NCBI GenBank assembly: GCA_963773185.1
Contig: CAVZAD010000015.1
Coordinates: forward strand, 849-64,848
Length of the DNA: 64,000 nucleotides
Direction of reading: 5' to 3'
Origin: an uncultured Verrucomicrobiae bacterium
GTDB lineage: Bacteria > Verrucomicrobiota > Verrucomicrobiia > Chthoniobacterales > UBA10450
In this document: one piece after another, positions 935-59,655 of the stretch
Layout: each line of letters starts with the position of its first letter
Position numbering within the stretch: the stretch's first letter is position 1
Made by a program: the position numbers and the translations under genes
Notes under the pieces: generated by a model
What the model was told of the DNA's origin: nothing
Databases searched by the model: none
The model's input: the letters and a program-made list of their open reading frames with translations, nothing else

Positions 935-2933
935 TCAGTGCCCGTTTGGACTGGCGGGGAGCATTACGCTCACGGAAGTGCCCTGGGGATTCGAATCAAT
1001 ATCGACCCGTCCATTGTGATCGAAGATCGTTCGTTTCACGATGGGAAGCCCCAATCCCATGCCGCGTGCTTTGGTCGTGCAAAAGGGCGAGAACACTTTT
1101 TCCTTCAGGTCTGCTGAGATGCCCTTGCCGTTGTCCTTTACGGTCACGACCACGCCGCTGGCGTGGTCGCCTTCGCGGATTTGTTTGGCCGCCAGGGTGA
1201 TCCGCGGTTTGGTCCGGCCCGAGGTGGCTTCCGCGGCATTGGCCACAAGGTGGGCGAACGCTTCGGTTAGCGCGTTTTCATCACCCAACACTTTGGGGAG
1301 GTCGTTCGGCAGCGTCGTGTCGATCGAGACGCCGTTTTTCTTCACGCGCGTCCGAGCCAGCTCGATGGCTTTTCTGACTGACGCTCGCAGGTCGATCGGT
1401 TTCATCACCAGTTCGGAGGGGTGGGCGAAGTTGTTGATCTGGGTGATGATCTTGTCGAGCCGGTCGATTTCCTGCACCACGATTTCGTTGAAATCCTTTC
1501 GGAAATCTGCGTCGTCGAATCGTTCCGGCAGAAGCTGGGCAAAGGTCTTGATCGCCACGAGCGGGTTGCGGATTTCGTGCGACATGCTCGCGGCGAGATC
1601 GGTCCAGAAGGCGGCCCGATCCACCAGATCCTGTTTCTGGCGCAGGCTGTCTTCCGCAGTCAGATCGTGGACGACTGCGACCGCGCCAAGGGGCGTTCTT
1701 TTGTCCGTCAGCCGCCGGGTTTCCACGGAAAGCGATCGGCGCGTGATGGGATCGATCCATTGCTGCGCGGGGAGGCTTTCTTTCGAATCGAGTGTCTCGC
1801 GCAAGAAAGGCTGCAAGGCGGCTGCCGGCCGCTTCGACGGGTTGATTTAGAGCATCGGCTGCGGTGATGCCGAGAATCCGTTCTGCCGTGGGATTAAACC
1901 AACGAACCATCGCTTCTTCGTCTGTCGCGACTATCCCGGGCGGGATCGACGTGAGAAGAGTTTCCGCCAGGGTTTTCTGGAGCGTGACCTCTTCATACAG
2001 CAACGCATTCTCCAGAACCGTCGAGACGTTTTCCGCGAGAAGCATCAGCCCTTCCAGGTCGTTGTAATCGAAGCGCTGGCCCGTGACGCGGTGACCAAAG
2101 AAAAGCCAGCCGATGATATTCCCTCGCGCGTGTAGCGGCACGATGACCTCGGCCCCAAAGGTGTCGAGAGCCCGCCGCATCAGGGTGCGATGCCTCTGGT
2201 CGGAAGTTTGGGTCAGGGTGCTCCGGGAGATCAGATGCGCGTGCAATTCGAACCAGCGGACCAACGGGTCGCGCTCGCCATATTCGATCTCGGCAGTCTC
2301 CGGAAGACACCGCAGGCCGGCCCGAAGTCGATAACGGTCGCCTTGCCGGATTTTCGAGAAAATGCCGACGCGTCCGATCCCGGTGGCGTCGGCCACGCCC
2401 TTCGACAACGCTGGCGAGTAAGGCCTCGACGTCGTCGAACCGGCGAAAGACCCTTGGAAAACGCAGCAGTGGCATCGAGGACTCGCGCCGCTCGGCGATC
2501 GCGTGGATTTGCCGGGGCTCAGGGGTTGCGATCGAGACGGATTGTTCGCGCAGTTCGCGATTCTCTTGCAAGACCCGCAGATGCTCTAATCCGCGTGAAA
2601 TCAGGGCTTGTAAGCTGCGGCGATTCGTCTGCAGATCCTCCGCCGCGTAGATATCGGACTGCTCTGCCTCGCGCAAAGGCTCGGAACGTGGCGTCCCGAG
2701 AGCTACGATCAATACCTCTGGCCAACCCTCCTGGATTTGTTCGAGAAGATCGCGGGCCTCTTTTGCCCGCAGGTCCACAAGGAGGATCGCCGGACCACTC
2801 TGCTGGAGCACTGCGTCCAATCGATCTGCCACGCTGACGTGACGGACTTCGGCCAGCGCGCTGAGGAACGCCTTGATGCGCCGGGCGAGGTCCGCGTCCT
2901 GCGAATAGAGGATACAAAGGGGGAAGGGCTCAC
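935..2933 (-). CDS. Cytoplasmic sensor histidine kinase, receiver-like/GAF/PAS/HisKA/HATPase_c (frameshifted as assembled)
   Basis: ORFs 1993..2832, 1281..2408 and 935..1816 join head to tail. Motifs: receiver-like LCILYSQDADLARRIKAF..ILLVDL; GAF-like VIVPLHARGNIIGWLFFGHR; PAS IVATDEEAMVRWFNPTAERILG; H-box SHEIRNPL; ATPase DNGKGI..GMGLGLPIV. Frame changes fall near 2920 (G5 run 2919-2923), ~2400 and ~1815. A likely GTG start at complement 2931-2933 overlaps the upstream stop (GTGA). Confidence 0.8.
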
Positions 2934-8320: not shown

Positions 8321-10762
8321 GTGTCTGGAAGTTACCGCGTTGCTCCGATTTTCCTGATTCGCATGGCTGGCGTGCCATTCGAGCCGCTGGACCGTCTCGC
8401 CACCACAGCGACAGCCGGGGCGGCCCGCGAAGTACTCGTTAGGCGCGGAGAATTTTCTCGAGCGAAATCCGAATTGGAAGGGTTACTCCGGAGGCGTGAT
8501 CACGGGATACCGGTGGAGGCATATCGTGTTTTGCGTCGAGCGGTTCGCGCGGGCAGCCTTCCGGACTTTGGCGAAAATGAGCCTCCCGGGGAGTCCGTCT
8601 TGTATGCCCGAGCCGTTACCGCGTTCGCTGCGGCAGAGGCTTGTCTCCACGAAGCGCTGGAACGTGAACTCGACCCGGCCCGTCTCGCGCTCCTGGAATC
8701 GACCCGGGAGGTTTTGGCGCCTTATCTCGTTTTTGGCGGGGTAGGCGTACGTGAAGTTCTGTTCGACCTAATGATGGCTGGTTCAAGACCGGGCTCTACC
8801 TTGCTGCCCCGAAAAAAGAAAGAGCGGGCGCGAGAGCGACATCTCCTTCTTTTCCTGCAACGCATTTGCGCGAAAAACGATACTTTAAGCGAATTTGGAC
8901 CGGGCGGCTGGGGAAGAATTATTGGCAACATGTCCGGCATCAGCATGTCGCCCCAAATTGGCATTGCCGGGCGGGAGACTTTTCTCGAGCGCTGGACTGC
9001 GCACGGAGTTGCGGCGGCCTTGAATGCCGACCCGGAGGTTCGCCTCGAGCTTTCGCCCCGCCAGCATCCCAATGGACGGGTCGACGGCAACCAGTTCGTT
9101 TTTGCAGGCACGGATCAAGTTGACACGCTTGACTCGAAGACCGTTGAAATTCTCCTTCGTTGTGACGGTGCGACGCCGGCGCACTCGTTAGGCGAAGCCG
9201 AAACGCTCGAGCGACTCGCGGCGCAAAACATGATTCTTTGGGAAGTCGAGGTGCCAGCTCTTGACCCTCACGCGTTCGACGTACTCGTTTCGGATATCTT
9301 GCGCTGGCGCGACAATCCCGTCCGAGCGCGCTGGCTGGAGGCACTGCAACCCATCGCCGCCCTGCCCACCGTGTTCGCCGAAGCGACGGAAACGTCTCGA
9401 CGGGCGGAGATCATGGATGAAGCGCGGGGCCTGTTACAGGATCTCGGCACCGCGCGCGAGACGTCTGACCGTTTCCTTTACTCGGCAGCTAATCCGATAG
9501 GCGAAGAATGTTTTCGGGAATGCCATTTCTCGATCGGAGAAAATTTGATTAACGAAGTTACGACCGAGGCCGCGCCTTGGATTGATCTCTGGCGCGACAA
9601 CTACGCCTTTGTCGCCAGCCGTGTCGCCGCGGGCTTGCGCGCTCTCCTCGAAAAAGCGCCGTTGCAAGACGGAGCGCTTCCTTTACCGGCATTTTTGCAG
9701 CATTGCGCCATGCTCAAGATGCCTCTGACGGGTCCGGCCATGGTCGGTCTGGCCCATATGGCTTTTCAGGAAGTGAAGGCCGCGTTTCGGGAGCGGATGC
9801 GGGACCGGCCGGAAGCCGATGAATGGGAGCTCACCGTGGATGATTGCCATTTTATTCGCCGAAATTTTCAGTACGACAAGTTCGACGAATTCACCTATCC
9901 GTCAGCCGATCTGCAGCTCGAGGCGAAGTCCGTCGAAGCAGTGGGGCGCGGCGAGTACCGGTGGATTCTGGCTGAGCTTCATCCGCCCGTCGCGCTCCTT
10001 CATCACGGCTTTTACTGGAGTTGTCCGGACAAGGGAGCGCTCGGGGAGGCCCTGACCCAGGCCACGCAGGGTTGTCCGAGTTTTCACTTTGGTTTCTTCG
10101 CAGCGGATTTCACCTCGACTACGGCCGTTCGGATGCTCGATGCCATTCCCGATCGGACGAACTTTGTTGCCCCTCAACGTGGCGATCCACGCTGGCGGAT
10201 TATTCCTCCGGCGGAGATCGAGGTCTATGTCGAAGACAAGACCGGCGATGTTTGTTTGCGAACCCGCGGAGCCCGCGAATACCTCGGCTCTTTTGCGCGT
10301 GCGTGGGTGATTCCGCTCGGCTTTCATCCGTTTCATTTTGGCCGGACGCCCCACATGCCGCGCCTGCGCTGCGGCCGGGTGATCGTGCAACGCCGGTCGT
10401 GGACGATTACGCAGGAAGAGCTGGGACAAGGCGATTTCACGGGTATTTCGCGCGACCTTGTGCTCGCCATCGAGCGACTGCGAGCGGCGAAGGACTGGCC
10501 GCGCTACATCTACATTCGCCCCAGCGAACAAGCCTTGCGGCGAAGCGGTGCGGAAGGGCGCGACAAAGATACCAAGCCGGTCTTCATCGATCTCGAAAGT
10601 TATCTCTTCCTCGAAATCTTCCACCGCTGGCTGACCAAAGCCGGCGAGCTGGAGGTCAGCGAAATGCTGCCGAGTCCGGACGATTTGCTTTGGCAGGAGG
10701 AAGACGGCCGTCGCAGCTTCGAGCTCCGCACCCAGATTGTTCCAAGAGAAAGTGACGAGTGA
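8321..10762 (+). CDS. Small LanB-like protein (lantibiotic dehydratase N-terminal/glutamylation domain only; PEARL-like candidate)
   Basis: Intact 813-aa ORF with a GTG start. The N-terminus YRVAPIFLIRMAGVPFEPLDRL and the C-terminal block PRLRCGRVIVQRRSWTI...WPRYIYIRP...KPVFIDLESYLFLEIF resemble LanB N-domain family features as I recall them. It is about 200 aa shorter than full-length class I dehydratases. This was not verified by HMM search. Confidence 0.6.
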   Translation: MSGSYRVAPIFLIRMAGVPFEPLDRLATTATAGAAREVLVRRGEFSRAKSELEGLLRRRDHGIPVEAYRVLRRAVRAGSLPDFGENEPPGESVLYARAVTAFAAAEACLHEALERELDPARLALLESTREVLAPYLVFGGVGVREVLFDLMMAGSRPGSTLLPRKKKERARERHLLLFLQRICAKNDTLSEFGPGGWGRIIGNMSGISMSPQIGIAGRETFLERWTAHGVAAALNADPEVRLELSPRQHPNGRVDGNQFVFAGTDQVDTLDSKTVEILLRCDGATPAHSLGEAETLERLAAQNMILWEVEVPALDPHAFDVLVSDILRWRDNPVRARWLEALQPIAALPTVFAEATETSRRAEIMDEARGLLQDLGTARETSDRFLYSAANPIGEECFRECHFSIGENLINEVTTEAAPWIDLWRDNYAFVASRVAAGLRALLEKAPLQDGALPLPAFLQHCAMLKMPLTGPAMVGLAHMAFQEVKAAFRERMRDRPEADEWELTVDDCHFIRRNFQYDKFDEFTYPSADLQLEAKSVEAVGRGEYRWILAELHPPVALLHHGFYWSCPDKGALGEALTQATQGCPSFHFGFFAADFTSTTAVRMLDAIPDRTNFVAPQRGDPRWRIIPPAEIEVYVEDKTGDVCLRTRGAREYLGSFARAWVIPLGFHPFHFGRTPHMPRLRCGRVIVQRRSWTITQEELGQGDFTGISRDLVLAIERLRAAKDWPRYIYIRPSEQALRRSGAEGRDKDTKPVFIDLESYLFLEIFHRWLTKAGELEVSEMLPSPDDLLWQEEDGRRSFELRTQIVPRESDE

Positions 10763-10887
10763 CATGTGACATGTGACGAGTTCAGAAACAACGCTCGGTG
10801 CGTGGTGTCCTCGACCGAGCGAGTTCGTCCATTGTCATTCTTTCGTGCTTTTTCTTTACATGGCACACGTCACACGTCACACGTCAC
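10752..10887. repeat. Inverted arrays of GTGAC(A/G)T heptads flanking the parA upstream region
   Basis: 10752-10780 reads GTGACGAGTGACATGTGACATGTGACGAG. 10864-10887 reads CACACGTCACACGTCACACGTCAC, whose reverse complement is GTGACGTGTGACGTGTGACGTGTG. The right array ends 9 nt before the parA ATG. Confidence 0.7.
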
Positions 10888-10896
10888 TTTCTTCCC

Positions 10897-11667
10897 ATGA
10901 AGATCATCGCAGTCGCAAACCAGAAAGGCGGCGTCGGTAAAACGACGACGGCGGTGAATCTCGGCTGCGCCCTGGCGGAGCAAGGTCTGCGCGTGCTGAT
11001 TATCGACCTCGATCCCCAGGGCAATGCGACCAGCTCGTTCGGTTTGCAGGAGTTGGAAGGCGAAAGCCTCTATGAGCCGCTGCTGGGCGCCGCCACGATC
11101 GCCGACAAGATCCTTCCCACGCGAGTAGAGCGCGTTTTCATCGTTCCCGCCGATCTCGATCTCGCCGGGGCCGAAGTCGAAATCGCGCGGCTCGACAACC
11201 ATCTCACCCGGCTCGCCGAGACCCTCGCTCCGCTCCGCTCCGACAACACTTTTGATTTCGTTCTGCTCGATTGCCCACCCTCGCTCGGCATCCTGATGAC
11301 GAACGCGCTCGCCGCCGCCGACGAGCTCCTCACGCCAATCCAATGCGAATTTTTCGCGCTCGAAGGCCTGGTGAAAATCGTCCGCATCATTGAGCAGGTG
11401 CGCAATTCCGGCGCGAACGATCGACTCGAGATCGGCGGCATCGTCATGACGATGTTCGACAGCCGGACGAACCTGAGCGCGCAGGTGGTCGCGGATGTCC
11501 GGGCCCACTTCGGCGAACGGGTTTACGAGACCGTCATCCCACGCACCGTTCGCCTCAGCGAAGCGCCCAGCTTCGGCAGATCGATCCTCGAACACGATCC
11601 GAACGGGACCGGTGCTCGCGCCTACCGCGCCCTCGCGAAAGAGTTCATCCAACGCCACTCCACCTAA
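10897..11667 (+). CDS. parA: ParA/Soj-family partition ATPase (no parB follows)
   Basis: MKIIAVANQKGGVGKTTTAVNL (deviant Walker A), LIIDLDPQGNAT, LLDCPPSLG, EFFALEGL. The start is taken at the ATG at 10897; the ORF track starts at an upstream alternative codon, 10798. Confidence 0.9.
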   Translation: MKIIAVANQKGGVGKTTTAVNLGCALAEQGLRVLIIDLDPQGNATSSFGLQELEGESLYEPLLGAATIADKILPTRVERVFIVPADLDLAGAEVEIARLDNHLTRLAETLAPLRSDNTFDFVLLDCPPSLGILMTNALAAADELLTPIQCEFFALEGLVKIVRIIEQVRNSGANDRLEIGGIVMTMFDSRTNLSAQVVADVRAHFGERVYETVIPRTVRLSEAPSFGRSILEHDPNGTGARAYRALAKEFIQRHST

Positions 11668-14974: not shown

Positions 14975-15874
14975 CTACCGAGCGGTAGCGATTCCGGCAG
15001 GGGTTTGCGCAAAGGTCGCCGACAGCTCGGCCAGAACCCTTTCAGGACCGACGAACTGCTTTCCGACGTAGCTATCGGAGAGGACTTTCCCGCTGGCATC
15101 CAGCAGCACGAGGCAGGGAATGGCTTCTCCGCCATATTTCTTGAGCGCGCCTTTTGTTGGAAGCTTGGAGAATTCGATCGCCGGCCAGGGCATTTTCAGA
15201 TCGCGCATATAGGCCTCCATCGCACCGGCCGAGTGATCGTTGCTGACGAAAACAATTTCGAATTCCGGATGCTGGGCTGCGACGCGGTTATAGAATTCGA
15301 CCAGCTGCGGGGTGAACGCGCGACAGGGCCCGCACCACTGGGCGGAAAAATAGAGTGCAATCAGTTTTTTCTTGGAGAGCGCTTCGTCTTCGAAAGGGGC
15401 AAGACTCGCGAGATTTCCATTTCTCCAGGCGACCAGATCACCTTTGAATTGATTTGCCAGAATAGTGGAGGCCTGGCCGGTGGAAGGTGGCGCCGCAGTT
15501 CGGGCACGGAGAAGTTTGTCCTGGTAGAGGGTGTTGAATTTGCGCGATTGCTCAATCTCGCGCGCACGCCTCGCGGTCTGCGTCGCCAATTCGTCCTGGG
15601 CTTTTTGCGCATCAGCTGGCGAGACGGTGTAGGAACCGGCTTTGATGGCGTTGACGAGCGCCGGAGCGGCCCCGGCTTCCCGAAGGGTTTGCTCGGCAAC
15701 GGCGTTAAGCGGTTCGGACAATCGTCTAACGGAGAGCTCCTTCTGCACGGTCTCACTCGCAAAGCCGGATCGCAGCATAAGGATGACTTCTTTTATCGTG
15801 AGAGGCAGCGTGCGGGCGGGAAGGGAGCTGAGCGCAGTTCCAGCCACGATGACGAGGGCAAGCAGGTAGCGCAT
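14975..15874 (-). CDS. Exported thioredoxin-fold protein (TlpA/nucleoredoxin-like, WCGPC)
   Basis: Signal peptide MRYLLALVIVAGTALSSLPA. C-terminal domain LIALYFSAQWCGPCRAFTPQLVEFYN..FEIVFVSNDHS. Confidence 0.75.
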   Translation of the reverse strand: MRYLLALVIVAGTALSSLPARTLPLTIKEVILMLRSGFASETVQKELSVRRLSEPLNAVAEQTLREAGAAPALVNAIKAGSYTVSPADAQKAQDELATQTARRAREIEQSRKFNTLYQDKLLRARTAAPPSTGQASTILANQFKGDLVAWRNGNLASLAPFEDEALSKKKLIALYFSAQWCGPCRAFTPQLVEFYNRVAAQHPEFEIVFVSNDHSAGAMEAYMRDLKMPWPAIEFSKLPTKGALKKYGGEAIPCLVLLDASGKVLSDSYVGKQFVGPERVLAELSATFAQTPAGIATAR

Positions 15875-15972
15875 TCTTCCATGCGAGCAGGAGATGCGCC
15901 ATTGGGTGGCTGGTTGGTTGCGGACGGTGCAACGCGCCGGCCCTACCAGAGGTGGATTGGGGTGGTGTTTGA

Positions 15973-16758
15973 CTACGGAGGCCCGCCACGGTCGTAGACC
16001 TCAACGAGGCCGACACCGGTGCCGTTGTTCAATCCCGCCAGCAGTGCAGTATAGAGGCCAGGCGGTAGCGTCTTTGCTATCCCCGACTCGAGATCGCTTC
16101 CCAGCGCGAGGCCGGCCGCGGTCAACTCAGCGGCTTGAGCGGGATCATCCTGCCAATCGTTGTTGGCGGCGAGAAGCGCTCCATTACTGTCGCGCAGTTC
16201 CAGAGTTGGATTGGCCAGCGCACCAGCAACTCCCAAGGCCGTGAGGCTGGGGCCGATGCCACGGGCGATGATCCTGTCGTCACCGCTATGGCTGCCCAGG
16301 ATGAACCCGGCGATGACGATTTCGCTAGAGGTGCCGACAAACGCCCGGGTGCTGATATTGGCCAGCTTCGCCGGAACGGCCAGGCTCAGATCGTACAACT
16401 CAATTAATCCGACCCCCGATGTATTATTCTGGCCTCTCACGAGCGCCGTGTAGGCTCCGGGATTTAGGGTGGCGTCAATCGCCGATTCGAGATCGTTGCT
16501 CGGTGGGATGCCGGTGGCGATGATCGCTGCTTCCTGGACGGGGTCGTCTTTCCAATTGTTGTTGGTGATCGTGGTGAAGCCATCGGGTCCGTGCAGTTCG
16601 AGCACGGGATCCGCGAGCGCGTCGGGAACCCCGAGCTTGGTGAGAGATGGGCCGATGGCGCGAAGAAGCACATGCTTGGGAGCACTTCCCGTAATGATGA
16701 ATCCGCCGATGCCGACATTGTCACCGATCTGAACCCGCATTCGGGTCGAGAGGTTGAT
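15973..16758 (-). repeat. Copy 1 of the shared tandem C-terminal module (2 x ~130 aa, ends VEVYDRGGPP)
   Basis: INLSTRMRVQIGDNVGIGGFIITG..LADPVLELHG..NNNWKDDP..DLESAIDATLNPGAYTALVRG..LIELYDL, followed by LANISTRAFVG..LANPTLELRDSNG..NNDWQDDP..DLESGI..PPGLYTALLAG..LVEVYDRGGPP. It is about 85% identical at the nt level to 24409-25195 (16141-16320 compared by eye with 24576-24755). Confidence 0.85.
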
Positions 16759-19700
16759 GGCCTGTGCTGGAGTAGCGGAAGGTGTCACGGTCGGCGTTGG
16801 TGCTGGTGTGACGCCGGGAGTTGGAGTGGGTGCGATCGTGGCTGTCGCGGTCGCGGTGACTGTAGCTGTAGCTGTCGGACTAGGTGTAACACCCGGAGTC
16901 AGCGAAGGCGTCGGGCTGGGTGGAACGGTGGCAGTCGCGGTCGCAGTAGCCGTGGCGGTAGGAGTCGGACTCGGTGTAATCCCAGGGGTTAATGATGGCG
17001 TTGGACTGGGGGGCACGGTGGCTGTCGCAGTAGCCGTGGCTGTGGCTGTAGCGGTCGCCGTGGCGGTCGGACTCGGCGTGGGCGTAATACCTGGCGTTAT
17101 GCTTGGTGTGGGAGTTGGCGTTCCGCCTGGGCCTGAGGGCAACGGCCAGACATATGCGCCGCGACCGCGGGTCCAGACGGAAAGAGTGGTGAAGCCGCGA
17201 TCATACTGCATGTCCCAGATCATCGCGTGAGGCAGTCCGTTCTCGAAGCGCGACCAGGTGGGATTGCCGCGGTGATATCGTTCGTATAAGTACAGGCCCC
17301 AATCCGTGCCGGCGAAGACTTGTTGCGGGAATTTTGGGTTGGCAATGATCGAATCGACCGGGATGTCCGGGAGATTGCCGGTCTTGTTGTTCCAGGTGAA
17401 GGAGGCGCAGTCCGTCGTGCAGACCACCTGGAAAACGTGGCCGGGCGTGGTGGGAGTGTTGGCATTGAAGCCGCCCACCGCCGCGTAACCAATGGGCGCG
17501 GTCGTGGTTGTCGGATCGAAGACGACGTCGAGGATCGGGCGATTGGGCAGAACGGTATTACCGCCGGTCACGTTCACCCAGGTAGATTGGTTCGAGCCGG
17601 TTCCCAGGCCGCGGCCGATTTGCACGTTGCCGTCGTTGGTCCCCACGATCACGGTCGATTGCAGGGCCTGCGAAATGGCGAGTTGATTGATGAAGGAGCG
17701 ATTGCCGAGCGTTTGCTTGGTCAGGTTTGCCGGGCTGTTTACGTACCAGGTCACCGTGTTGGCGGCGCCCGTGATTGTTTCCCAAACTCTCACGGTGCCA
17801 GCAACCAGATGGCCGCAGCCGGTGGCCGGGCCCGCTGGTCCGCAATCGTTACCCGGCGTATTCGGATCGCCCTTGAAAATTTCGTAGGGCAGAATGAATG
17901 ACTGGGTATCGCCGGTCCAGCCGCCGGTGAGATCGCTCCAGCTCGCGCCGGAAGCGGTGCAATTGTTGATGCAGCGATTGAGGTGACCGCTGTTGTTTCC
18001 CTGCCAGAAGCGCGGGCTTGTTCCGGTGCCGACCGGGTCGATCCGGCCATAGAATCCATCGCCGCCTTTGCCCATCTGCCATTGCACAGGTCCCGTCGGA
18101 CTGCCGGAAAACGTGACCGACATGGCGCCGTTATCCTGGGCGCCACCATTGGCCTGCGGTGCCGCCGAAGTGGCGAAGTTACCGCTGATATCGCCGGAGT
18201 AGAATTCGATCGTGTTCAGGCCGGTGTCCATGTTGAACCACGTCGGATCGACCGTCAGGCTGGCGAGATTGGCGTTGGTGGTGCCGTGGACGCCGCCGTC
18301 GTTGCCTGCCAGCAGGATGCTGGAAGAACCGGGAACGAACGCCAGCGCGTGCTGATCCACGTGCACGATATTCCCGCCGCTGTAACCGCAAGAGGTATCG
18401 TTCCAGGTGGCGTTGCCGTTTTGCCAGAACCAGACATCGAAGGTGTTGAAGAAGACGCGGTCCGGATTATTCGGATCCACGGCGATGGCCTGGTCGTACC
18501 AATTCTGCGGGTAGTCGCCCGCGCCGCCGCTGCAGTTAAGGAGCGAGGCGCCGGGCGAGCCGGTGATCTGAGTCCAGGTGGCGCCGCCGTCGGTGGTGCG
18601 AAAGGCGCCGAGCTGGCAGCCGTTGGCGTTGCCGCAGCCGCTATTCGGATTGGGCGTGATGGACTGGACCTGCGCATACATGTAGTTCGAGTTGCTCGGC
18701 GCGACGGCGATGTCGACCCGGCCAAGCTGATTGCCGGTAGTCGCGTTGACGTAGGCCGTGCCGCTGGTCGCATTGGTTCCGGTCCACCCATTGGCGTTCG
18801 TGGAAATCGGAACGAAATCTGCCGGGCAACCGCTCGCCGGCATCGTTCCCTCGTAAATCCCGTTCGCGCCGTTCTGATTGAGATTGGATTGCACGGTGGT
18901 GGCAAAGCCGCGCACGCCGACTGCGGCAATGATGCGTGTGCTCGCGCCGGTATTGATGAGAGCGAGGCCGGTAATGTCCTGACGCATCGTGCTGAAACTG
19001 TTGGTGGTGCACGGCCCGGTCCAGTTAGTGCCGCCATCGTAGGAGAAGTAGAGGCCGGTCTTCGTGCCGGCCACGACATTGTTGCTGTTGCGCGGATCGA
19101 CGCGCACTTTGCCGACTGCCTGGTATTGCGGGAACTGGCCCGGGCGGCAGCGGCAAGGCTGGCCCAAAAACGCTGCCTCCCTGCAGCGTCCAGGTGGCGC
19201 CGGCGTCGGTCGATTTGAGAACGCCCTGGCTGCCCATGGAGAAAGAGCCGTAGTTCAGATCGCCGGTTCCAGCGTAGATCGTGTTGTGATTGTTCGGATC
19301 GATGGTGACGGTGTCGATGCTGATGGTGGCGAGCAGCGGATCGTCGGTGACCGCGGTCCACGACGTCGTGCTGCTGCAGCAGTTCGTGGTTTTCCAGACG
19401 CCGCCGCCGACCGTTGCCAGATAGGCGACGTTGGTCGTCGCCGGATCGATCGCGATGTCGTTCACCCGGCCCTCGGTCAATTGATAATTAAAACAGCCGG
19501 AGCAGCCGGTCATGCGCAGGGGTTGGGGGCCGAGCGCGGTGAAGCTGTTAGGGGAAAGCGTCACCGCCGGATTGTTCTGATTCGCGGGCAAGCCTGAGGG
19601 GATGCTGCGCGCGACGCGGGCGTCCTGGGCGGCGGCCTGTCGCACCCACTCCGGGTCGAAACGGCCCGTCGGGTAGGTCAACCGATTGTGCCAGTCGAGT

Positions 19701-19933
19701 TCCAAATCGTCGAGTTCATCCACTTCGCCGCCGGGAACCGGCATATAGTGCTCCCGACGATCTTTATCGCCGCGCTCATTCCGGTCGTCCGGATCGCCCT
19801 CGGGGCCGGCTAAGTGTCGCCCTATCCCCGTGAAGCTGTACATCGCCAGCAGCACACCGGTGGAACACAGGACAAGGGCGAAAAGAACGCGTGGAGCGAA
19901 GCGGCCAGATCTGGAAATGCGTTTTCTTTTCAT
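15973..19933 (-). CDS. Large secreted BNR/Asp-box beta-propeller protein (sortilin/GH74-like) + PT linker + tandem C-terminal module (one frameshift as assembled)
   Basis: ORFs 19025..19933 (N-terminus with a hydrophobic anchor/signal) and 15973..19167 join near ~19150. Asp-box motifs: KSTDAGATW, SYDGGTNW, RTTDGGATW. There are many Cys pairs. The C-terminus is described under the repeat features. Confidence 0.75.
16759..17139 (-). repeat. In-frame low-complexity tandem repeat encoding a Pro/Thr/Ala linker
   Basis: It encodes TPTPTPSITPGITPTPSPTATATATATATATATATVPPSPTPSLTPG... with the ~30-aa unit TVPPSPTPSLTPG(I/V)TPSPT(P)TATATATA repeated. Confidence 0.85.
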
Positions 19934-20013
19934 GAAATGCGCTCGTTCATGTCCCCGTGCAGACCCCGCCGCGAATTCCCATTGGGTTCGGCCGAAGAGC
20001 CGTGAATGGGAAG

Positions 20014-20487
20014 TTACTCTTCGTCACCGGAATCATCGGGCGCCGGCGTCGCAACGACCAGACCGGCCAGAAGAAAAGTCAGGGCGGCCGAGAATAAGCA
20101 AAAACGACAGAAGGCATGGAGGACGAACACTTGCACGTAGAGGAACCACAACGTCGCGGCGAACATTGTCCAGACGGTTACGGTGAACCATTTCCACGCC
20201 CGTTGGTGGCCGAAGCCGGAGAAGACGGCGAAAGTGAAGGCTGCGAAATAACCCAAGGCGCCTAAAGCCGCCACGGGGATCCCAGCGATTCTCGCGTACG
20301 AGCTGCCGAGCACCTCGAAGCAACCGGTGGATTGGCCACACGCCGCCGTCTCGCCCGTCAGCGCGATTACAGTGAGATAAGTCGCGTCGGCCAGTCCCGC
20401 CAACGCGATCAGGGCCGCGATCGTGTTGAGAACGGCTCGCACGTTTATTCCCTCGCCCTCGGTCTGTCTTTTTGCGTTGTTTTTCAT
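20014..20487 (-). CDS. Vitamin K epoxide reductase (VKOR) family membrane protein
   Basis: 4-TM protein with CGQSTGC (loop Cys pair) and CRFC (CxxC in the last TM region). Confidence 0.75.
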   Translation of the reverse strand: MKNNAKRQTEGEGINVRAVLNTIAALIALAGLADATYLTVIALTGETAACGQSTGCFEVLGSSYARIAGIPVAALGALGYFAAFTFAVFSGFGHQRAWKWFTVTVWTMFAATLWFLYVQVFVLHAFCRFCLFSAALTFLLAGLVVATPAPDDSGDEE

Positions 20488-20600
20488 CGGAAGAATATCA
20501 AGGAAGGCGTCTCGTCAAAATCCGAGCGGAGAGCTTGCCGGTGGGCGCTCACACTTCCTAAGCTCTTGTTTAGCATGGCTGAAAAGACGACGATAGCGGA

Positions 20601-21203
20601 ATGATTGCCAGAACTTTCGCTCTGTTTTGTTTCCTGCTCGGGAGCTTCACCCTCGCTTTGAGCGAGAAGGCTGAGGCGGCTTCGACCGCGCCCGGAACGT
20701 ACCGAAACTGGGACGGAGACCTCGATGAGGTGACAATTGTTCAGCCGTTTCGTCTCGATGCCTACAACGACATTGCCGTCGAGTCTTTCGACATCACCGG
20801 CGTGCCCCTGCCGAATCCGAAGGAGAACACATTTGCGGCCGTGCAAGGCGCTCTTCGCTCGCTCAAGCCCGCCTTCCTCGAAGGATTTCAACAGAACCTG
20901 CGTCGAAAACCTGGCGCGGCCAACACGGCGCGGGGCAAGGGAGAGACGCTGGTGATCATCGCGCGTGTGATCAAAGCCGATCCTGGCTCACAGGCGGCGC
21001 GTTACTGGGGCTTCGGCGCAGGGGCGGTAAAGGTCGCGCTGATGGGAGAGATCATTGATGCCCGTTCCCGGAAGGTTTTGATCAGGTTCAAGCAGGAACG
21101 AAGGGCTGGATTTGGAATGTTCGGCGGCGGCTACGGCGCCCTCTTTGACCGGACCGCGCGTCAAATCGGAGGCGATATTGCCGAACTGCTGAACGCGTTT
21201 TGA
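20601..21203 (+). CDS. Exported protein, possibly DUF4410-like
   Basis: Signal peptide MIARTFALFCFLLGSFTLALS. The C-terminal block AARYWGFGAGAVKVALMGEIID is reminiscent of DUF4410 lipoproteins. This is a weak call. Confidence 0.4.
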   Translation: MIARTFALFCFLLGSFTLALSEKAEAASTAPGTYRNWDGDLDEVTIVQPFRLDAYNDIAVESFDITGVPLPNPKENTFAAVQGALRSLKPAFLEGFQQNLRRKPGAANTARGKGETLVIIARVIKADPGSQAARYWGFGAGAVKVALMGEIIDARSRKVLIRFKQERRAGFGMFGGGYGALFDRTARQIGGDIAELLNAF

Positions 21204-21266
21204 TTTACGGCGTTTGGGCGTTCTTGAAAAGGGCTGCGGGTCGGTTAACATGACGCCCGCAAAGTC

Positions 21267-21342
21267 GGGGGTATAGCTCAGTTGGTAGAGCGCGTCGTTC
21301 GCAATGACGAGGCCTGGGGTTCGAATCCCCATACCTCCACCA
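21267..21342 (+). tRNA. tRNA-Ala (anticodon CGC), CCA encoded
   Basis: Cloverleaf folded by hand: acceptor GGGGGTA/TACCTCC with the G3:U70 Ala identity pair; D arm GCTC-AGTTGGTA-GAGC; anticodon arm CGTCG-TTCGCAA-TGACG; T arm TGGGG-TTCGAAT-CCCCA; then ACCA. Confidence 0.95.
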
Positions 21343-21420
21343 TTCTTTGGGATGGCGGCCGTTTCCGGCGTGGAACGAATTGATCGGGTCGCGAAGTGGT
21401 CCCCCGGACCCCGCCCCCAA

Positions 21421-22205
21421 TTAGGGTGCGCCGCGGTCGTAGACTTCCACCACGCCAACACCGGTTCCGTTGTTCGATCCAGCGAGCAGCGCGGTGTAAA
21501 GACCGGGAGGAAGCGTGATGGCCACGCCCGACTCTAGCGGGTCTGTTAGTGCGAGTCCCGCGGAGGTCAACTCCACAGCATAGGCGGCGTTATCCTGCCA
21601 GTTGTTGTCCGCAATTAGAAGCGCTCCGTTGCTGTCGCGCGCCTCGAGTGTTGGATCGGGCAGAGCGTTTGTGACGCCGAGAGCAGTCAGGCTCGGCCCA
21701 ATCCCTCGCACGACGATCCGGGCGTTGCCGTTGTGATTGCCCAGAATGAAACCCGCAATCACGAGATCATTCCCCGTGCCGACAAAAGCCCGGGTGCTGA
21801 GGTTGGCCAGCCTTGCCGGCACGGCCTGACTCAGGTCGTACACTTCAATCAGGGCAATACCCGATGTGCTGTTCTTTCCTCTCACTACCGCGGTATACGC
21901 GCCTGGATTCAAGGTCACATCGATGGCTGACTCGAGAGCGTTCGCTGGCGCTATGCCAGTGGCGATAATCGCGGCTTCCTGAGCAGGGTCGTCTCGCCAG
22001 TTGTCATTGGTGATCGGCGGGAGCCCATCTGAACGATGCAATTCCAGCGTTGGGTCAGCCAGAACATTAGGAATTCCGGATTGCGCCAGGGAAGGTCCGA
22101 TGGCTCGGAGCAGCACATGTTTGGGAGCACTGCCGGTGATGATGAACCCGCCGATGCCGACGTTGTCCCCTGTCTGAACTCGCATCCGCGTTGAGAGATT
22201 GACCG
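21421..22205 (-). repeat. Copy 2 of the shared tandem C-terminal module (ends VEVYDRGAP)
   Basis: VNLSTRMRVQTGDNVGIGGFIITGSAPKHVLLRAIGPSL..LIEVYDLS, followed by LANLSTRAFVGTGNDLVIAGFILG..VVEVYDRGAP. Confidence 0.85.
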
Positions 22206-24298
22206 TCTGAGCCGGATTGGGAATTGGTGAAGCTCCGGGTGTGGCGGTCGGCGTTGGCGTCGGCCCTACCACCTCAAATAGCGTCATCATTCCGTCATCC
22301 TCATGTTCCAGGATGTGGCAGTGGAGCATGTAGATGCCGACGTGATCCGTGAACTTCAGCTTCAGCTCCAGCGTCTCGCCCGGCCCGACTGTCCAGGTCT
22401 CCTTCATCGTTTCGTACGGATAACAGGGCCCTCCGTCGCGGCTGATGCACTGCTGATCGACGTCATGGATGTGAACCATGTGGGTCGATCCCGGTCGGAT
22501 TGGTGAAAACCCACTTCTCGGTCGTGCCCAGGACTGGGCTGGGCGTCGATCCGGTTCGGATCGAATTCCAGGCCGTTGATCGTCCAATGGTTCGAAGTGA
22601 AATCGAAGCTGAAGTTCCGCGTCACGGTGGGCTGCCGATATCAGGCAGCGGACGCAGGGTCGATGGGATCGAGCTTGTGTCGATGAATGCTGGTTGACCC
22701 GGAACTTCAGCAGCGGGACCATCTGGTAGGCATCCATCAGATAGATGTCCTGTCCGAATTTTCCGGCGAAATCGACCACCACGTCCAGGCGTTCCGCCGG
22801 TCCCACGTCCATCGCTGTCCGCGCCACCGGTGCCGGCAGCAGGCCGCTCTCCGTCCCGATCTGGGTAAAGGCTCGCCAGTGCTGAGGGTAAAAATATAGA
22901 TGCGGGCGTTGGCGCCGTTGAGAATGCGGAGCCGATACTTGCGGTCGGCCACGTCCAGATACGGCTGGTAAACGCCGTTGACCAAGACCTTGTCGCCGAC
23001 GACACCCGAGGGATCGTAGAAATATTGCAGCTGGTTGTCTTCGTCGAATTGCCGATCGGCGATCAGCAGCGGAAGCTCATACGCCCCGGAAGGAAGCGTC
23101 GACGGATCCGCCGGATCATCGACGATGAAGAGACCCGTGCAGCCCCATCCAGACATTCATCCCGGTCTCGCCCATGCGGTGATCGTGATACAACTGCATC
23201 GTGCCCCGCTCGTTCTCGCCATTCTCGGTCCCGTCGTAGGTGTAGGTCCGCGATTGACCCGGCTCGAAGAGGAAACTGCTGCCGGCAGCCTGGCCATCAT
23301 CTACCGAAGCCGAATGGGCTCCCGTGGTGATGCACGGTCTTCCCGCCAGCGAGGAGCAGGGAGATTATTGGTGAAAGTCATGCGCGTGGTCTGCCCGGTC
23401 GGGCGCGAATCGTCAGGCCGGGATACGTCCCTCCGATAGGTCCACATGTAGGTGCATGGCCCATCGAGGATCGAGCACGCATGCTTCGGCAATGCTGATC
23501 GGGATTTCCGCAGCAGTGCTCGTGGGCGGGAAGAGCAACGGATGTGATGAAAAAGGCGCCGGTGTCGGAGTTGGCGTGGCGTCGGTGAGGGAGTCGGCGT
23601 TGGCGTTGGCGTCGGCGTGGGAACTGGCGTCGGTGTTGGCGTGGGTGTTGGCGTCGCGGCTGGAGTTGAAGTCGCGGTTGCAGTTGCCGTCGCGGTCGCT
23701 GTCGGGGCGGCCGTCGAAGTTGGAGTCGCAGTGGGAACTGGGGTCGCGGTCGACGCTGGTGTCGCGGTGGCGCAGTGGCGGTGGCGGTGGCAGTCGCGGT
23801 CGCGGTCGCGGTTGGGATTGGGGACGGAGTCGGAGTCGGAGTCGGAGTCGCCGCGGGCGATAGCGTTGCTGTGGGAGTTGGGGTCGCTGTCGAAGCCGGG
23901 GTGGGTGTTGCCTGCACAACGGTCACCGTGCCCGTCATCATCGACCCGTGGACTCTGCAATAATAAGGAAAAGTTCCTACGGTGTTGAACGTTACCTGAA
24001 AAGAGAACCCGCTGGTGTGTGTGCCCGAATCAAATATGCCGTTCGGATTCCCGGGATTACCGGACGTCACGCTGTGGTTATTGCCGGCCCAGGTCCAATT
24101 GACGATGTCGCCGGGGTGGATGGTGACCTCGCTCGGCTCGTAGCTGAAGACGGTTTGCCCCACGATCACATTCGTTGTCGCCGCGGGAGCGAGAGCCGGG
24201 AGCAAGATCAGAAATGCGAGAAGCAGTCGGAAATTCACTTTGAAGATTCTCGCAGCGCGTATTGGGCGGCAGGCTATCACGGAAACGTGCGACCGCAA
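21421..24298 (-). CDS. Secreted cupredoxin domain + PT linker + three-domain multicopper oxidase + PT linker + tandem C-terminal module (multiple frameshifts as assembled)
   Basis: ORFs 23378..24298, 22737..23156, 22622..23005, 22404..22625 and 21421..22827 join. Motifs: plastocyanin-like NHSVTSG..FPYYCRVHGSMMTG; MCO LYHDHRMGETG and HIHDV..MLHCHILEHEDDGMM. At least 5 frame changes fall at ~23900-23400, ~23160, ~22850, ~22620 and ~22500. Confidence 0.75.
23530..23900 (-). repeat. In-frame Pro/Thr/Ala-coding low-complexity DNA (linker between the cupredoxin and oxidase domains)
   Basis: All three - frames give PT/AT/RQ-type low complexity. Runs such as GTCGGAGTCGGAGTCGGAGTCG are visible. This is a likely site of reading-frame ambiguity. 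Confidence 0.7.
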
Positions 24299-24408
24299 TT
24301 GATCTGGGACGAACGGCCGCGGTTTTGGGACGAAAAGGAGTCCGCGACACCAGCGGCGCGCGACGAGGTAGCGGTTGCGGACGGCGCAGCGCGGTGTCCT
24401 ACCAGCGA

Positions 24409-25195
24409 CTACGGCGGGCTGCCGCGGTCGTAGACTTCAACAAGGCCCACGCCGGTGCCGTTGTTCAATCCCGCCAACAGCGCGGTGTAGAGACCCGGCG
24501 GAAGTGTCCTTGCGATGCCAGACTCGAGGTCGCTTCCGGCGCGAGACCGGCCGCGGTCAACTCCGCGGCTTGAGCGGGATCATCCTGCCAGTCGTTATTC
24601 GCGAAGAGGAGCGCTCCATTACTGTCGCGCAGTTCCAGCGTTGGATTGGCCAGCGCGCCAGGCAACCCCAAAGCCGTCAGGCTGGGCCCGATACCGCGCG
24701 CGATGATCCTGTCATTGCCGCTGTTGCCGCCCAGGATGAAACCCGCGATGACGATGTCGCTCGCCGGTGCTGACAAAGGCCCGGGTGCTGATGTTGGCCA
24801 GCTTCGCCGGAACGGTCGGGCTCAGATCATACACTTCAATCAATGCGACCCCGGAGGTGTTATTGTTGCCTCTCACGATCGCCGTATAGGCTCCGGGATT
24901 TAGGGTGGCGTCAATCGCCGCTTCGAGATCATTGCTCGGCGGGATGCCGGTGGCGATGATCGCTGCTTCCTGGCTCGGATCGTCTCTCCAGTTGTTATTG
25001 GTGATCGTGGCAAAGCCGCCGGGCCCGTGCAGCTCCATTACCGGATCGGCCAGCACATCGGGAACGCCGAGCTGGGCGAGGGAAGGTCCGATGGCGCGGA
25101 GTAGCACATGCTTGGGAGCGCTTCCCGTGATGATGAACCCGCCGATGCCGACATTGTCTCCTGTTTGAACCCGCATCCGGGTCGAGAGATTGACG
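24409..25195 (-). repeat. Copy 3 of the shared tandem C-terminal module (ends VEVYDRGSPP)
   Basis: MRVQTGDNVGIGGFIITGSAPKHVLLRAIGPSLAQLGVPDVLADPVMELHG..LIEVYDLS, followed by ..IARGIGPSLTALGLPGALANPTLELRDSNGALLFANNDWQDDPAQAAELTAAGL. Confidence 0.85.
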
Positions 25196-26685
25196 GCCTG
25201 CGACGGAGTAGCGGACGGCGTTACGGTCGGCGTGGGTGCTGGAGTAATGCCGGGGGTTGGCGTGGGTGCGATCGTCGCCGTCGCGGTAGCCGTTGGCAGT
25301 TGCGGTCGCTGAAGGGGTAGGCGTCTGCGGCGGTGGGGTCAAGCTGTGGGGTCGCGGCTTGGTGTAGCTGTTGGCGTGGCCGTAGGAGTGACTGTCGGCG
25401 TAGCCGTTGGGCGTTGCGCTTGGAGTAGCCGTCGGCGTTGGCGTGGGCCCTCCGGTCTGGTAGGCGACGTAGATGGCGTTCCCACCGCCAGTGAATTGCA
25501 CTCCAAACGCCACGTCGCCGCCGTTGTTGAGGCTTACCCCGCCCATGAGAAACGCGACCACCTGCGGGCCGACATCGGTCATCAGGGTGTCGTTGACTCC
25601 GGCGATTCGTTGAAAGGTGACGCCGTCGGTGACGAAGACCGAATCTCGAGGAGTCGCCTGATTGTCGTTCCCGCGGAAGGCCACCAATCCCGTGTCGTTG
25701 ATGGAGGGAGCGAAGAAGTCGATGCTGGTAAAACCGGCGCCGTCGCTGACGGTCGGGAACATCGTCGTGGTCGTGCCATCGGAGACCACGATTCGGCGCG
25801 TCGAGGCAGCGGTGCTCGTCCGGGTAGTGAACGCGACCTGATCGAGGTTGTTCATTGAGATGCTGTTGTCCATCGCGAAGAAGACCGGGCCGGTGGTGCT
25901 GTCACCGGACGCGACCAGAGTGGAAGTTCCGTCGGCGTTCCAGACTCGAAGTTCTTTATAGGTCGCTGGCTGGAGGTTGATATTCGCCTGGGCCGCGAGG
26001 CGGTTGTTGTTGTTGAAAGCCGGTGCGTAGAGAAACGAATAACGGCTGTTGGGATCGCCGGACGTTTCGGTGACGTAGTTGATGAAGGCGTTAGTCGCGA
26101 CGTTGTAGGTCATCGAGCGCCTGGGGGGTGTTAAATTTCACCCGCATCCCGATGAGACCGTTGTCGTTGATCTCCGGGTTGGTGTAGGAAGTGGCGCCCA
26201 GCGGTCCGTTCGTGACGCGGGTCGTCAGGCCGGAGGCGTTATCGTAAAGATACAAACCGTCATCGGCGGCGCTGGAGCTGGCAAAGCGAGGAAACGAGAC
26301 CTGGTTGCTCTGGTTCACAAATGGATCGCTCAGGAGGGCGTCATTATCGTTCGCGTTGTAAACGGCCGCGCCGGTCCCGTGGCCGCCAAACCAGAGTCCC
26401 GGACTGGTCGTCAGTCCGATCGTGTTCACTTTCACGGCGACATTGCCGGCGTCGTTGAGATTCGCCGTGACGCTATTGAAGGTGGATCCATTGGGCAGGT
26501 TGAACGCCGTGCCGCCGAGTGTCGGCGCGCACTTGCAGCTGAATCTGATAAACGATCGGCAGGGAGCCGGCGGCGCCGTCACTTCGATGAGGAACGATCG
26601 TTGCGTGCTCCGTCGTTCCTGAGCCCAATAAGATGAGAGCAGGAGCGAGAAAGGCGACGGCAAGGGTAATTCTAATTTTGGCCAT
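24409..26685 (-). CDS. Secreted NxxGxxAF-type repeat protein + PT linker + tandem C-terminal module (multiple frameshifts as assembled)
   Basis: Signal peptide MAKIRITLAVAFLAPALILLG. Repeats: NDAGNVAVKV, NDNGLIGMRV, NNLDQVAFTT, NDTGLVAFRG, NNGGDVAFGV. ORFs 26473..26685, 26091..26663, 24995..26113, 24712..25176 and 24465..24776 join. The stop is at complement 24409-24411 (VYDRGSPP*). Confidence 0.7.
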
Positions 26686-59573: not shown

Positions 59574-59655
59574 AGCGAGGCTCGTGATAGTTTCCCCATT
59601 CCCAATTCACTGATCACTATTCACTTTCCACATTTCCGCATAAGGTAACGCCTTC

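Follow-up and report, generated by a model that had tools for sequence, protein, structure and literature searches.

In a 64,000-nucleotide stretch of a contig (CAVZAD010000015.1) from an uncultured Verrucomicrobiae bacterium, which we call the window, three co-oriented genes on the minus strand, designated A, B and C and all located within 15973-26685, encode unrelated secreted proteins that end in the same way. Each closes with a Pro/Thr/Ala linker followed by two tandem domains of 125-126 amino acids, a type-1 domain and then a type-2 domain. The analysis described here indicated that the domain represents a distinct, uncatalogued and very large sequence family of a known fold, namely the predicted jelly roll of PPC domains and collagen-binding domains (CBDs). 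What is unusual about it is the ordered pair, the non-peptidase proteins that carry it (its passengers), and its massive expansion in the soil order Chthoniobacterales, a group that is almost uncultured. A role of the pair in surface attachment or retention of its passengers is plausible and is the best available hypothesis for its function.

The domain pair and its predicted fold

A hidden Markov model (HMM) built from five copies of the domain and run on the window translated in all six frames detected these six copies and no others, with per-domain E-values of 1e-62 to 1e-70; the shared cassette is real and statistically unambiguous. An earlier description made from the letters of the window and its open reading frames (ORFs), hereafter the sequence-only reading, had proposed a shared linker and a tandem C-terminal module with domains of about 130 residues. 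The linker and all six copies are present where that reading placed them, but the domains are slightly shorter than supposed and belong to two distinct types in a fixed order. Type-1 domains follow the pattern STRMRVQ.GDNVGIGGFIITG..PKHVLLRAIGPSL... and type-2 domains the pattern STRAFV....IVIAGFILG......I..RGIGPSL..., and at the protein level type-1 copies share 78-88% identity among themselves and 43-49% with type-2 copies. Three conserved aromatic residues, W72, Y106 and Y125, vary little or not at all. The C-terminal ends, rightly described as near-identical, are VEVYDRGGPP, VEVYDRGAP and VEVYDRGSPP in genes A, B and C, respectively, and the stop codon follows directly, with no hydrophobic helix or basic tail after the folded domain. 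Likewise, the module had not been recognized as a named domain, and indeed no Pfam-A or NCBIfam model matched the window copies even at permissive thresholds, while divergent relatives also lacked a Pfam match and literature searches brought up no account of the module.

The AlphaFold model of a single domain (predicted local distance difference test, pLDDT, 90; predicted template modeling score, pTM, 0.84) shows eight strands packed as a beta sandwich, together with two short helices. A Foldseek search of this model against the Protein Data Bank (PDB) showed that the top matches were all PPC/CBD jelly rolls, with a probability of 1.00 and template modeling (TM) scores of 0.5-0.68. The best match was the PPC domain of a B. 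anthracis collagenase (5sv5; E 3.7e-6; TM-score 0.56/0.68, the value of 0.68 being on the target). Further matches included the Tk-SP C-terminal jelly roll (3afg, 9ues), ColG s3b (1nqj, 2o8o, 4hpk), ColH s3 (3jqw), the ColG tandem s3a-s3b (5iku), the claudin-binding C-CPE domain, the KP-43 C-domain and Ena2A fibre subunits. On the strength of the model, the domain is predicted to have the PPC/collagen-binding jelly-roll fold, and the remark in the sequence-only reading that its end looked vaguely PPC-like was correct at the level of fold. In addition, two conserved motifs, N-x-S-T-R and G-D-N, occupy positions that correspond to the Ca2+ site of PPC/CBD domains, where the N-terminal linker comes together with the loop preceding strand 2. 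A two-domain model was also tried as the fold query and was set aside in favor of the single-domain model, as it returned only meaningless multi-domain matches with TM-scores below 0.26.

Family size, position and movement of the cassette

When 1.84 billion cluster representatives were searched exhaustively with the HMM, 17,887 clusters (50% identity) were returned at E<=1e-3 and 8,159 at E<=1e-30, and a word-indexed search yielded at least 8,000 candidates, which among the matches listed were all metagenomic 'hypothetical proteins'. At least 538 genomic loci were found in GTDB contigs representing one genome per species. The best 80 of these at least 538 loci all came from soil metagenome-assembled genomes (MAGs) of Chthoniobacterales, Spartobacteria or Verrucomicrobiota, obtained from palsa, meadow soil, SMAG and Microflora Danica, and included at least 13 loci from one closed 4.18-Mb MAG and at least 15 from another. 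A single genome contains dozens of carriers, on functionally unrelated exoproteins. At the nucleotide level the window is about 80-84% identical to some of these loci, among which are orthologues of genes A and C, and its tRNA-Ala is 98.8% identical in related loci, which places the window in the same order. One domain pair marks a large share of the Chthoniobacterales secreted proteome, and a definition of the family would provide a handle on the exoproteome of this order with a single HMM. Members of the order, including the 'Candidatus Udaeobacter' group, have been counted as some of the most dominant bacteria in soil (PMC7343977). Divergent members of the family occur in MAGs labelled as Pseudomonadota (XOV89508.1), 'Candidatus Binatia' and Rhodoferax. 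Two proteins of the 'Candidatus Binatia' type (P0324 and P0344) have an insertion with cysteines (DPC.PNPGQ...PP.C) in the loop that leads to the LESAI strand, which suggests a disulfide-stapled variant of the domain.

The position of the module was determined in the 150 best representatives, in which a module was taken as C-terminal when its last copy ended no more than 15 amino acids from the C-terminus. The module was C-terminal in 129 of these (86%) and internal or N-terminal in the other 21; C-terminal placement, which the sequence-only reading had proposed to weigh against internal and N-terminal placement, is thus far commoner but not obligatory. Genuine internal modules with Pro/Thr (PT) linkers on either side were found in P0194 (residues 680-936 of 1965), P0143, P0211, P0241 and P0197, whereas in P0204 and P0266 the module comes straight after the signal peptide with other domains downstream, and P0004 and P0121 are module-only secreted proteins made of a signal peptide and three to four copies. 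The ordered type 1-type 2 pair was present in 223 of the 269 proteins retrieved, the remainder having arrays of two to five copies. Passengers range over propellers, oxidases, peptidases, lectin-like proteins and repeat proteins. They include He_PIG, FG-GAP, DUF5122 and PD40 propellers, Laminin_G_3, sortilin/BNR, Calx-beta, CHRD and delta-60 repeats, and those of enzyme type include an apiosidase-like glycoside hydrolase, a phosphoesterase and reprolysin, the last in only 1 of 60 representatives. Given that the passengers are very diverse and mostly not peptidases, autoproteolytic removal of the module is unlikely. The sequence-only reading had noted that one carrier is of the NxxGxxAF class, which elsewhere precedes other C-terminal sorting signals, and passengers do often fall within the 'choice-of-anchor' or sortase-dependent families of Haft (J, Z, NxxGxxAF, MXAN_5453, MtsC and SVAGG); the module therefore occupies the slot in which other phyla place anchors. 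Since it is also found internally, after signal peptides or alone, it behaves in position like a modular binding domain that prefers the C-terminus, and this argues against an obligate terminal sorting signal.

The results also showed that the linker and di-domain form a transferable cassette on unrelated Sec-type passengers, as had been proposed. Genes A and C share a tract (15971-16887 and 24407-25324) that is 84.9% identical over 920 nucleotides (nt), including about 130 nt of the linker, and for the segments 16141-16320 and 24576-24755, claimed to be about 85% identical, we obtained 87%. Module A is 85.5% identical to module C at the nucleotide level versus 72.5-73.7% to the modules of its own orthologues in two related loci (L040 and L010), although the passenger regions of those orthologues are about 80-81% identical to that of gene A. 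Because module A is nearer to module C than to the modules of its own orthologues, the linker-module cassette of A and C was exchanged or converted within this lineage. The supposition of recent shuffling or gene conversion thus stands as to the exchange itself but not as to its date: a very recent conversion was rejected, since synonymous divergence (dS) between the type-1 domains of A and C is 0.54, and for the A/B and B/C pairs synonymous sites have reached saturation, with protein identity still near 78%. The ratio of nonsynonymous to synonymous divergence (dN/dS) among paralogous modules is 0.06-0.12, indicating strong purifying selection. Carriers are also clustered, with at least two separate co-oriented arrays in 46 of 79 loci of 12 kb and up to five in some, and such clusters would provide direct repeats for this kind of recombination. 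Runs of three to five co-oriented carrier genes within 12 kb were seen in L019, L072, L073, L027, L056 and other loci, and one array in L073 has five domain copies.

The carrier genes in the window and their reading frames

All features of genes A, B and C given below lie on the minus strand, and the signal peptides of these genes and their orthologues were judged by eye. The passenger identities given in the sequence-only reading (BNR propeller, cupredoxin with multicopper oxidase, and NxxGxxAF repeat protein) were recovered in each case. Gene A (15973-19933) encodes a signal peptide (MKRKRISRSGRFAPRVLFALVLCSTGVLLA), a BNR/Asp-box sortilin-type propeller, assigned from Asp-box motifs together with F510_1955 and sortilin-type matches, a Pro/Thr/Ala linker of about 120 residues (16759-17139), of which the last approximately 130 nt, up to 16887, fall inside the tract common with gene C, and the di-domain module. 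The type-1 domain of module A (16384-16758; 125 amino acids) scored 222 bits with the HMM (E 5e-70) and is the domain modelled at pLDDT 90, and the type-2 domain (15985-16362; 126 amino acids; E 1.6e-62) precedes a terminal GPP and the stop codon. On either side of gene A lie genes for a secreted thioredoxin-like protein (14975-15874, minus strand) and a VKOR-family protein (20014-20487, minus strand), which are components of an extracytoplasmic disulfide-forming pair.

Gene B (21421 to approximately 24298) encodes a signal peptide (FRLLLAFLILLPALAPA), a cupredoxin (approximately 23912-24175; Copper-bind, 1e-9), a PT linker (approximately 23557-23911), a multicopper oxidase spread over several frames (approximately 22264-23556; Cu-oxidase_2, 1e-13), a short PT linker (22204-22266) and the module, which consists of a type-1 domain (21829-22203; E 1.3e-68) and a type-2 domain (21430-21807; E 3.8e-62) followed by AP and the stop codon. 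Gene C (24409-26685) encodes a signal peptide (MAKIRITLAVAFLAPALILLGSG), NxxGxxAF 'choice-of-anchor' repeats (TIGR05002 at 7e-11; MXAN_5453 family at 3.5e-29), a PT linker (25195-25449) and the module, with a type-1 domain at 24820-25194 (E 1.9e-69) and a type-2 domain at 24421-24798 that two 1-nt insertions or deletions (indels) divide into three pieces. The segment between the gene C orthologue and tRNA-Ala varies among loci: in the window (compared at 21267-21342) it holds the multicopper-oxidase carrier, in L076 (6903-6983) nothing, and in L028 (9976-10055) unrelated ORFs on the opposite strand, and the orientation of the tRNA relative to the carrier varies as well. The surroundings of the gene B stop codon, about 26 nt, match the end of the L076 carrier at 24 of 26 positions. 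Insertion of gene B by module-module recombination beside tRNA-Ala was considered as a possible event; the flanks and the tRNA orientation differ among the window, L076 and L028. Elsewhere in the window, an ORF of 813 amino acids (8321-10762, plus strand) has a weak match to the N-terminal domain of lantibiotic dehydratase (2e-12) in its C-terminal part only, and it is followed by a ParA/MinD-type ATPase gene (10798-11667).

All three carrier genes are interrupted by 1-nt indels, which the sequence-only reading did not mention. Gene A has an insertion at about 19144 and a compensated pair (+1 then -1) at 17287/17262, gene B has several frame changes between about 22830 and 23560, and gene C has indels at about 26518, 26112, 25409, 25294, 24760 and 24535. 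The compensated pair at 17262-17287 swaps about eight propeller residues of gene A, so that GLYLYERYHRGNPTW is read in the window where relatives have GLYFTNDITAAVPVW. Unbroken orthologues exist for gene A (1271 amino acids; L040, 2968-6783) and for gene C (749-761 amino acids; L076 and L028), and two other genes in the window, for 2-oxoglutarate dehydrogenase (58.4-59.6 kb) and for a GAF-PAS-HisKA kinase (0.9-2.8 kb), are also split. In the former, Transket_pyr is shared out over two overlapping ORFs (58207-59587, plus strand), and in the latter the GAF-PAS and HisKA-HATPase parts are broken across frames (935-2832, minus strand). Given that the carrier orthologues are intact and that non-carrier genes are frame-split too, pseudogenisation specific to the carriers was rejected, and the indels throughout the window are most likely assembly errors. 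The frame splits suggest an error-prone assembly, probably of long-read origin.

Public gene calls and annotations systematically overlook the domain pair or break it up. The calls also shorten the carriers in a systematic way, as the module is called as a protein of 253-255 amino acids starting from the Met of STRMRVQ (for example at 3622-4762 of L081, and in P0003 and about 80 other matches of 252-255 amino acids), while in these cases the passenger, linker and module upstream form one continuous frame. The repetitive DNA of the PT linker yields a rival ORF in another frame, and several contigs end within the linker (L011 and L036, where the match begins at base 85). A definition of the family would mend thousands of such shortened gene models.

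Candidate functions and relation to known systems

We tentatively favor, at slightly less than an even chance, the reading that the di-domain is a non-catalytic, folded and retained module that tethers exoproteins to a component of the envelope or matrix of the producing cell, by analogy with the tandem CBDs of ColG and with other retention modules. The di-domain would remain on the mature protein and bind one common ligand, holding diverse exoproteins near the cell, and one common ligand would explain the close likeness of all paralogous copies. The ligand would probably be a glycan or some other constituent of the envelope or matrix of the producer itself, and Ca2+ may be needed for binding as in ColG. 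Recombination or gene conversion within the repetitive linker and module DNA would carry the cassette from gene to gene, a movement favored by the arrangement of carriers in co-oriented arrays. One common partner is supported by the near-invariant pair, the unrelated passengers, the long flexible linkers and a constraint far beyond the needs of the fold. Several results weigh on the other side. The identity of the ligand and the dependence on Ca2+ are guesses; the likeness to PPC/CBD domains is one of fold, with no match to PF04151 at E<=10 in the window copies or in divergent relatives and no match of two profiles of the domain to PDB sequences; the TM-scores are moderate and the domain has two extra helices; and the strong C-terminal bias would also fit a role in secretion or processing. 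Likewise, an hhalign comparison with ColG s3a/s3b was not significant (E 0.25), although within that alignment the 'PG.YTALV' strand of the domain falls opposite 'PGKYYLLV' of ColG, and homology to the ColG CBDs at the level of sequence was rejected. If tethering is correct, a definition of the family would direct attention to a single ligand or receptor, the identification of which could explain how the oligotrophs of this order hold extracellular enzymes near the cell.

The di-domain might instead act like a carbohydrate-binding module (CBM), binding some polymer or surface that is abundant in the environment (polysaccharide of plants or fungi, protein, or mineral/organic matter, for example) and gathering its passengers there. 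The beads-on-a-string layout, PT linkers and variable position are typical of CBMs, the best-studied members of the PPC/CBD fold bind insoluble collagen, the two-domain model weakly recalls tandem CBM51, and the three conserved aromatic residues would suit such binding. However, most passengers are not polymer-degrading (propellers, FG-GAP, PD40, multicopper oxidase and NxxGxxAF repeats), no Pfam CBM family matches the module, and a near-identical module on dozens of unrelated proteins per genome better fits a single self-ligand, and we consider substrate targeting unlikely, if worth keeping in view. Export or sorting covers one of the two roles, sorting or attachment, suggested by the sequence-only reading. 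Here the module would be recognized by an outer-membrane translocation or attachment machinery, as the C-terminal domain (CTD) of the type IX secretion system (T9SS) or the PEP-CTERM signal of exosortase is, and would then be removed or covalently processed. The extreme C-terminal position in most representatives and the very strong sequence constraint would suit recognition by one machinery, many passengers come from families that elsewhere end in PEP-CTERM, MYXO-CTERM, GlyGly-CTERM or T9SS signals, about 900 kb of related genomes contained no PEP-CTERM-like tails by a crude regular-expression search, and PPC domains of many proteases are removed after secretion (see PMC3327674 and PMC11379387). 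The module-only proteins and the 21 representatives in which linkers and further domains follow the module speak against it, as do the lack of a transmembrane segment or basic tail, a fold that differs from that of the T9SS CTD, the absence of matches to T9SS CTD or sortase-type HMMs of Pfam and NCBIfam, and the absence of a candidate processing enzyme among the genes near the carriers (asparaginase, thioredoxin-like protein, VKOR, DUF4410 and tRNA-Ala). Identity with a T9SS CTD or PEP-CTERM-type signal was rejected on fold, tail sequence and position, a strict sorting-signal role was not supported, and the broader sorting reading, weakened by these results, appears improbable.

We regard it as very improbable that the jelly rolls are structural appendages with no specific external ligand, that is, Ca2+-dependent stabilizers, folding aids like that of Tk-SP, spacers or oligomerization units. 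The C-terminal jelly roll of Tk-SP, which is a stabilizing domain, and the Ena2A fibre subunits are indeed among the structural matches. Yet a stabilizer would not be expected on such unrelated passengers across long flexible linkers, nor as module-only proteins, nor would it be expected to keep 78-88% identity among paralogues despite saturated synonymous sites. A bolder proposal, which we think rather unlikely, is that soil Chthoniobacterales have an undescribed cell-surface display system in which the ordered di-domain serves for docking, with all carriers plugging into one envelope receptor, lattice or export/attachment machinery. If true, this would amount to a functional counterpart of the dockerin-cohesin, SLH or T9SS-CTD systems, with a PPC-like fold as its basis.

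Tethering to the producing cell, the reading that we prefer, can be set beside several known systems. Tandem C-terminal CBDs are a known architecture of ColG, and the module resembles PPC domains (PF04151) and the collagenase CBDs (ColG s3a/s3b, ColH s3 and 5sv5) in being an eight-stranded, non-catalytic jelly roll placed C-terminally, often in tandem, on Sec-exported multidomain proteins. It differs from them in the lack of significant sequence similarity, in the two extra short helices, in the fixed heterotypic type 1-type 2 pair and in a massive lineage-specific expansion with 75-88% identity among paralogues. Moreover, whereas typical PPC domains are attached to a secreted peptidase and removed on maturation, the passengers of the module are overwhelmingly non-peptidase, and the window has a multicopper oxidase, a propeller and a repeat protein in this place. 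Among curated sequence models, NCBIfam NF038127 ('DVUA0089 family protein', FDP_fam; cutoff 29 bits) is alone in reaching the family, with matches inside module copies of several relatives. P0127 (51 bits), P0141 (46.6 bits, from a single stretch over profile positions 38-111), P0129, P0167, P0201 and P0121 scored 30-51 bits, mostly summed over several weak stretches in the module copies, and the window proteins gave no match at E<=0.1. The model describes proteins of about 150 amino acids, in contrast to a C-terminal di-domain cassette, and DVUA0089 itself is known only as a sigma54/DVUA0057 target listed beside exopolysaccharide and biofilm genes (PMC4641369). With the T9SS CTD and the PEP-CTERM/exosortase, MYXO-CTERM and GlyGly-CTERM elements the module shares the same slot on homologous passengers (NxxGxxAF, choice-of-anchor J/Z and MXAN_5453) and the use of one element by many unrelated secreted proteins per genome, but it is not obligately terminal, lacks a transmembrane helix and basic tail, and has another fold. 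Finally, although the module has no sequence or fold match to the families of PT-linked binding modules (CBMs and those of dockerin, SLH and choline-binding type), it resembles them in its beads-on-a-string layout, in the use of one module across many passengers and in its spread by recombination.

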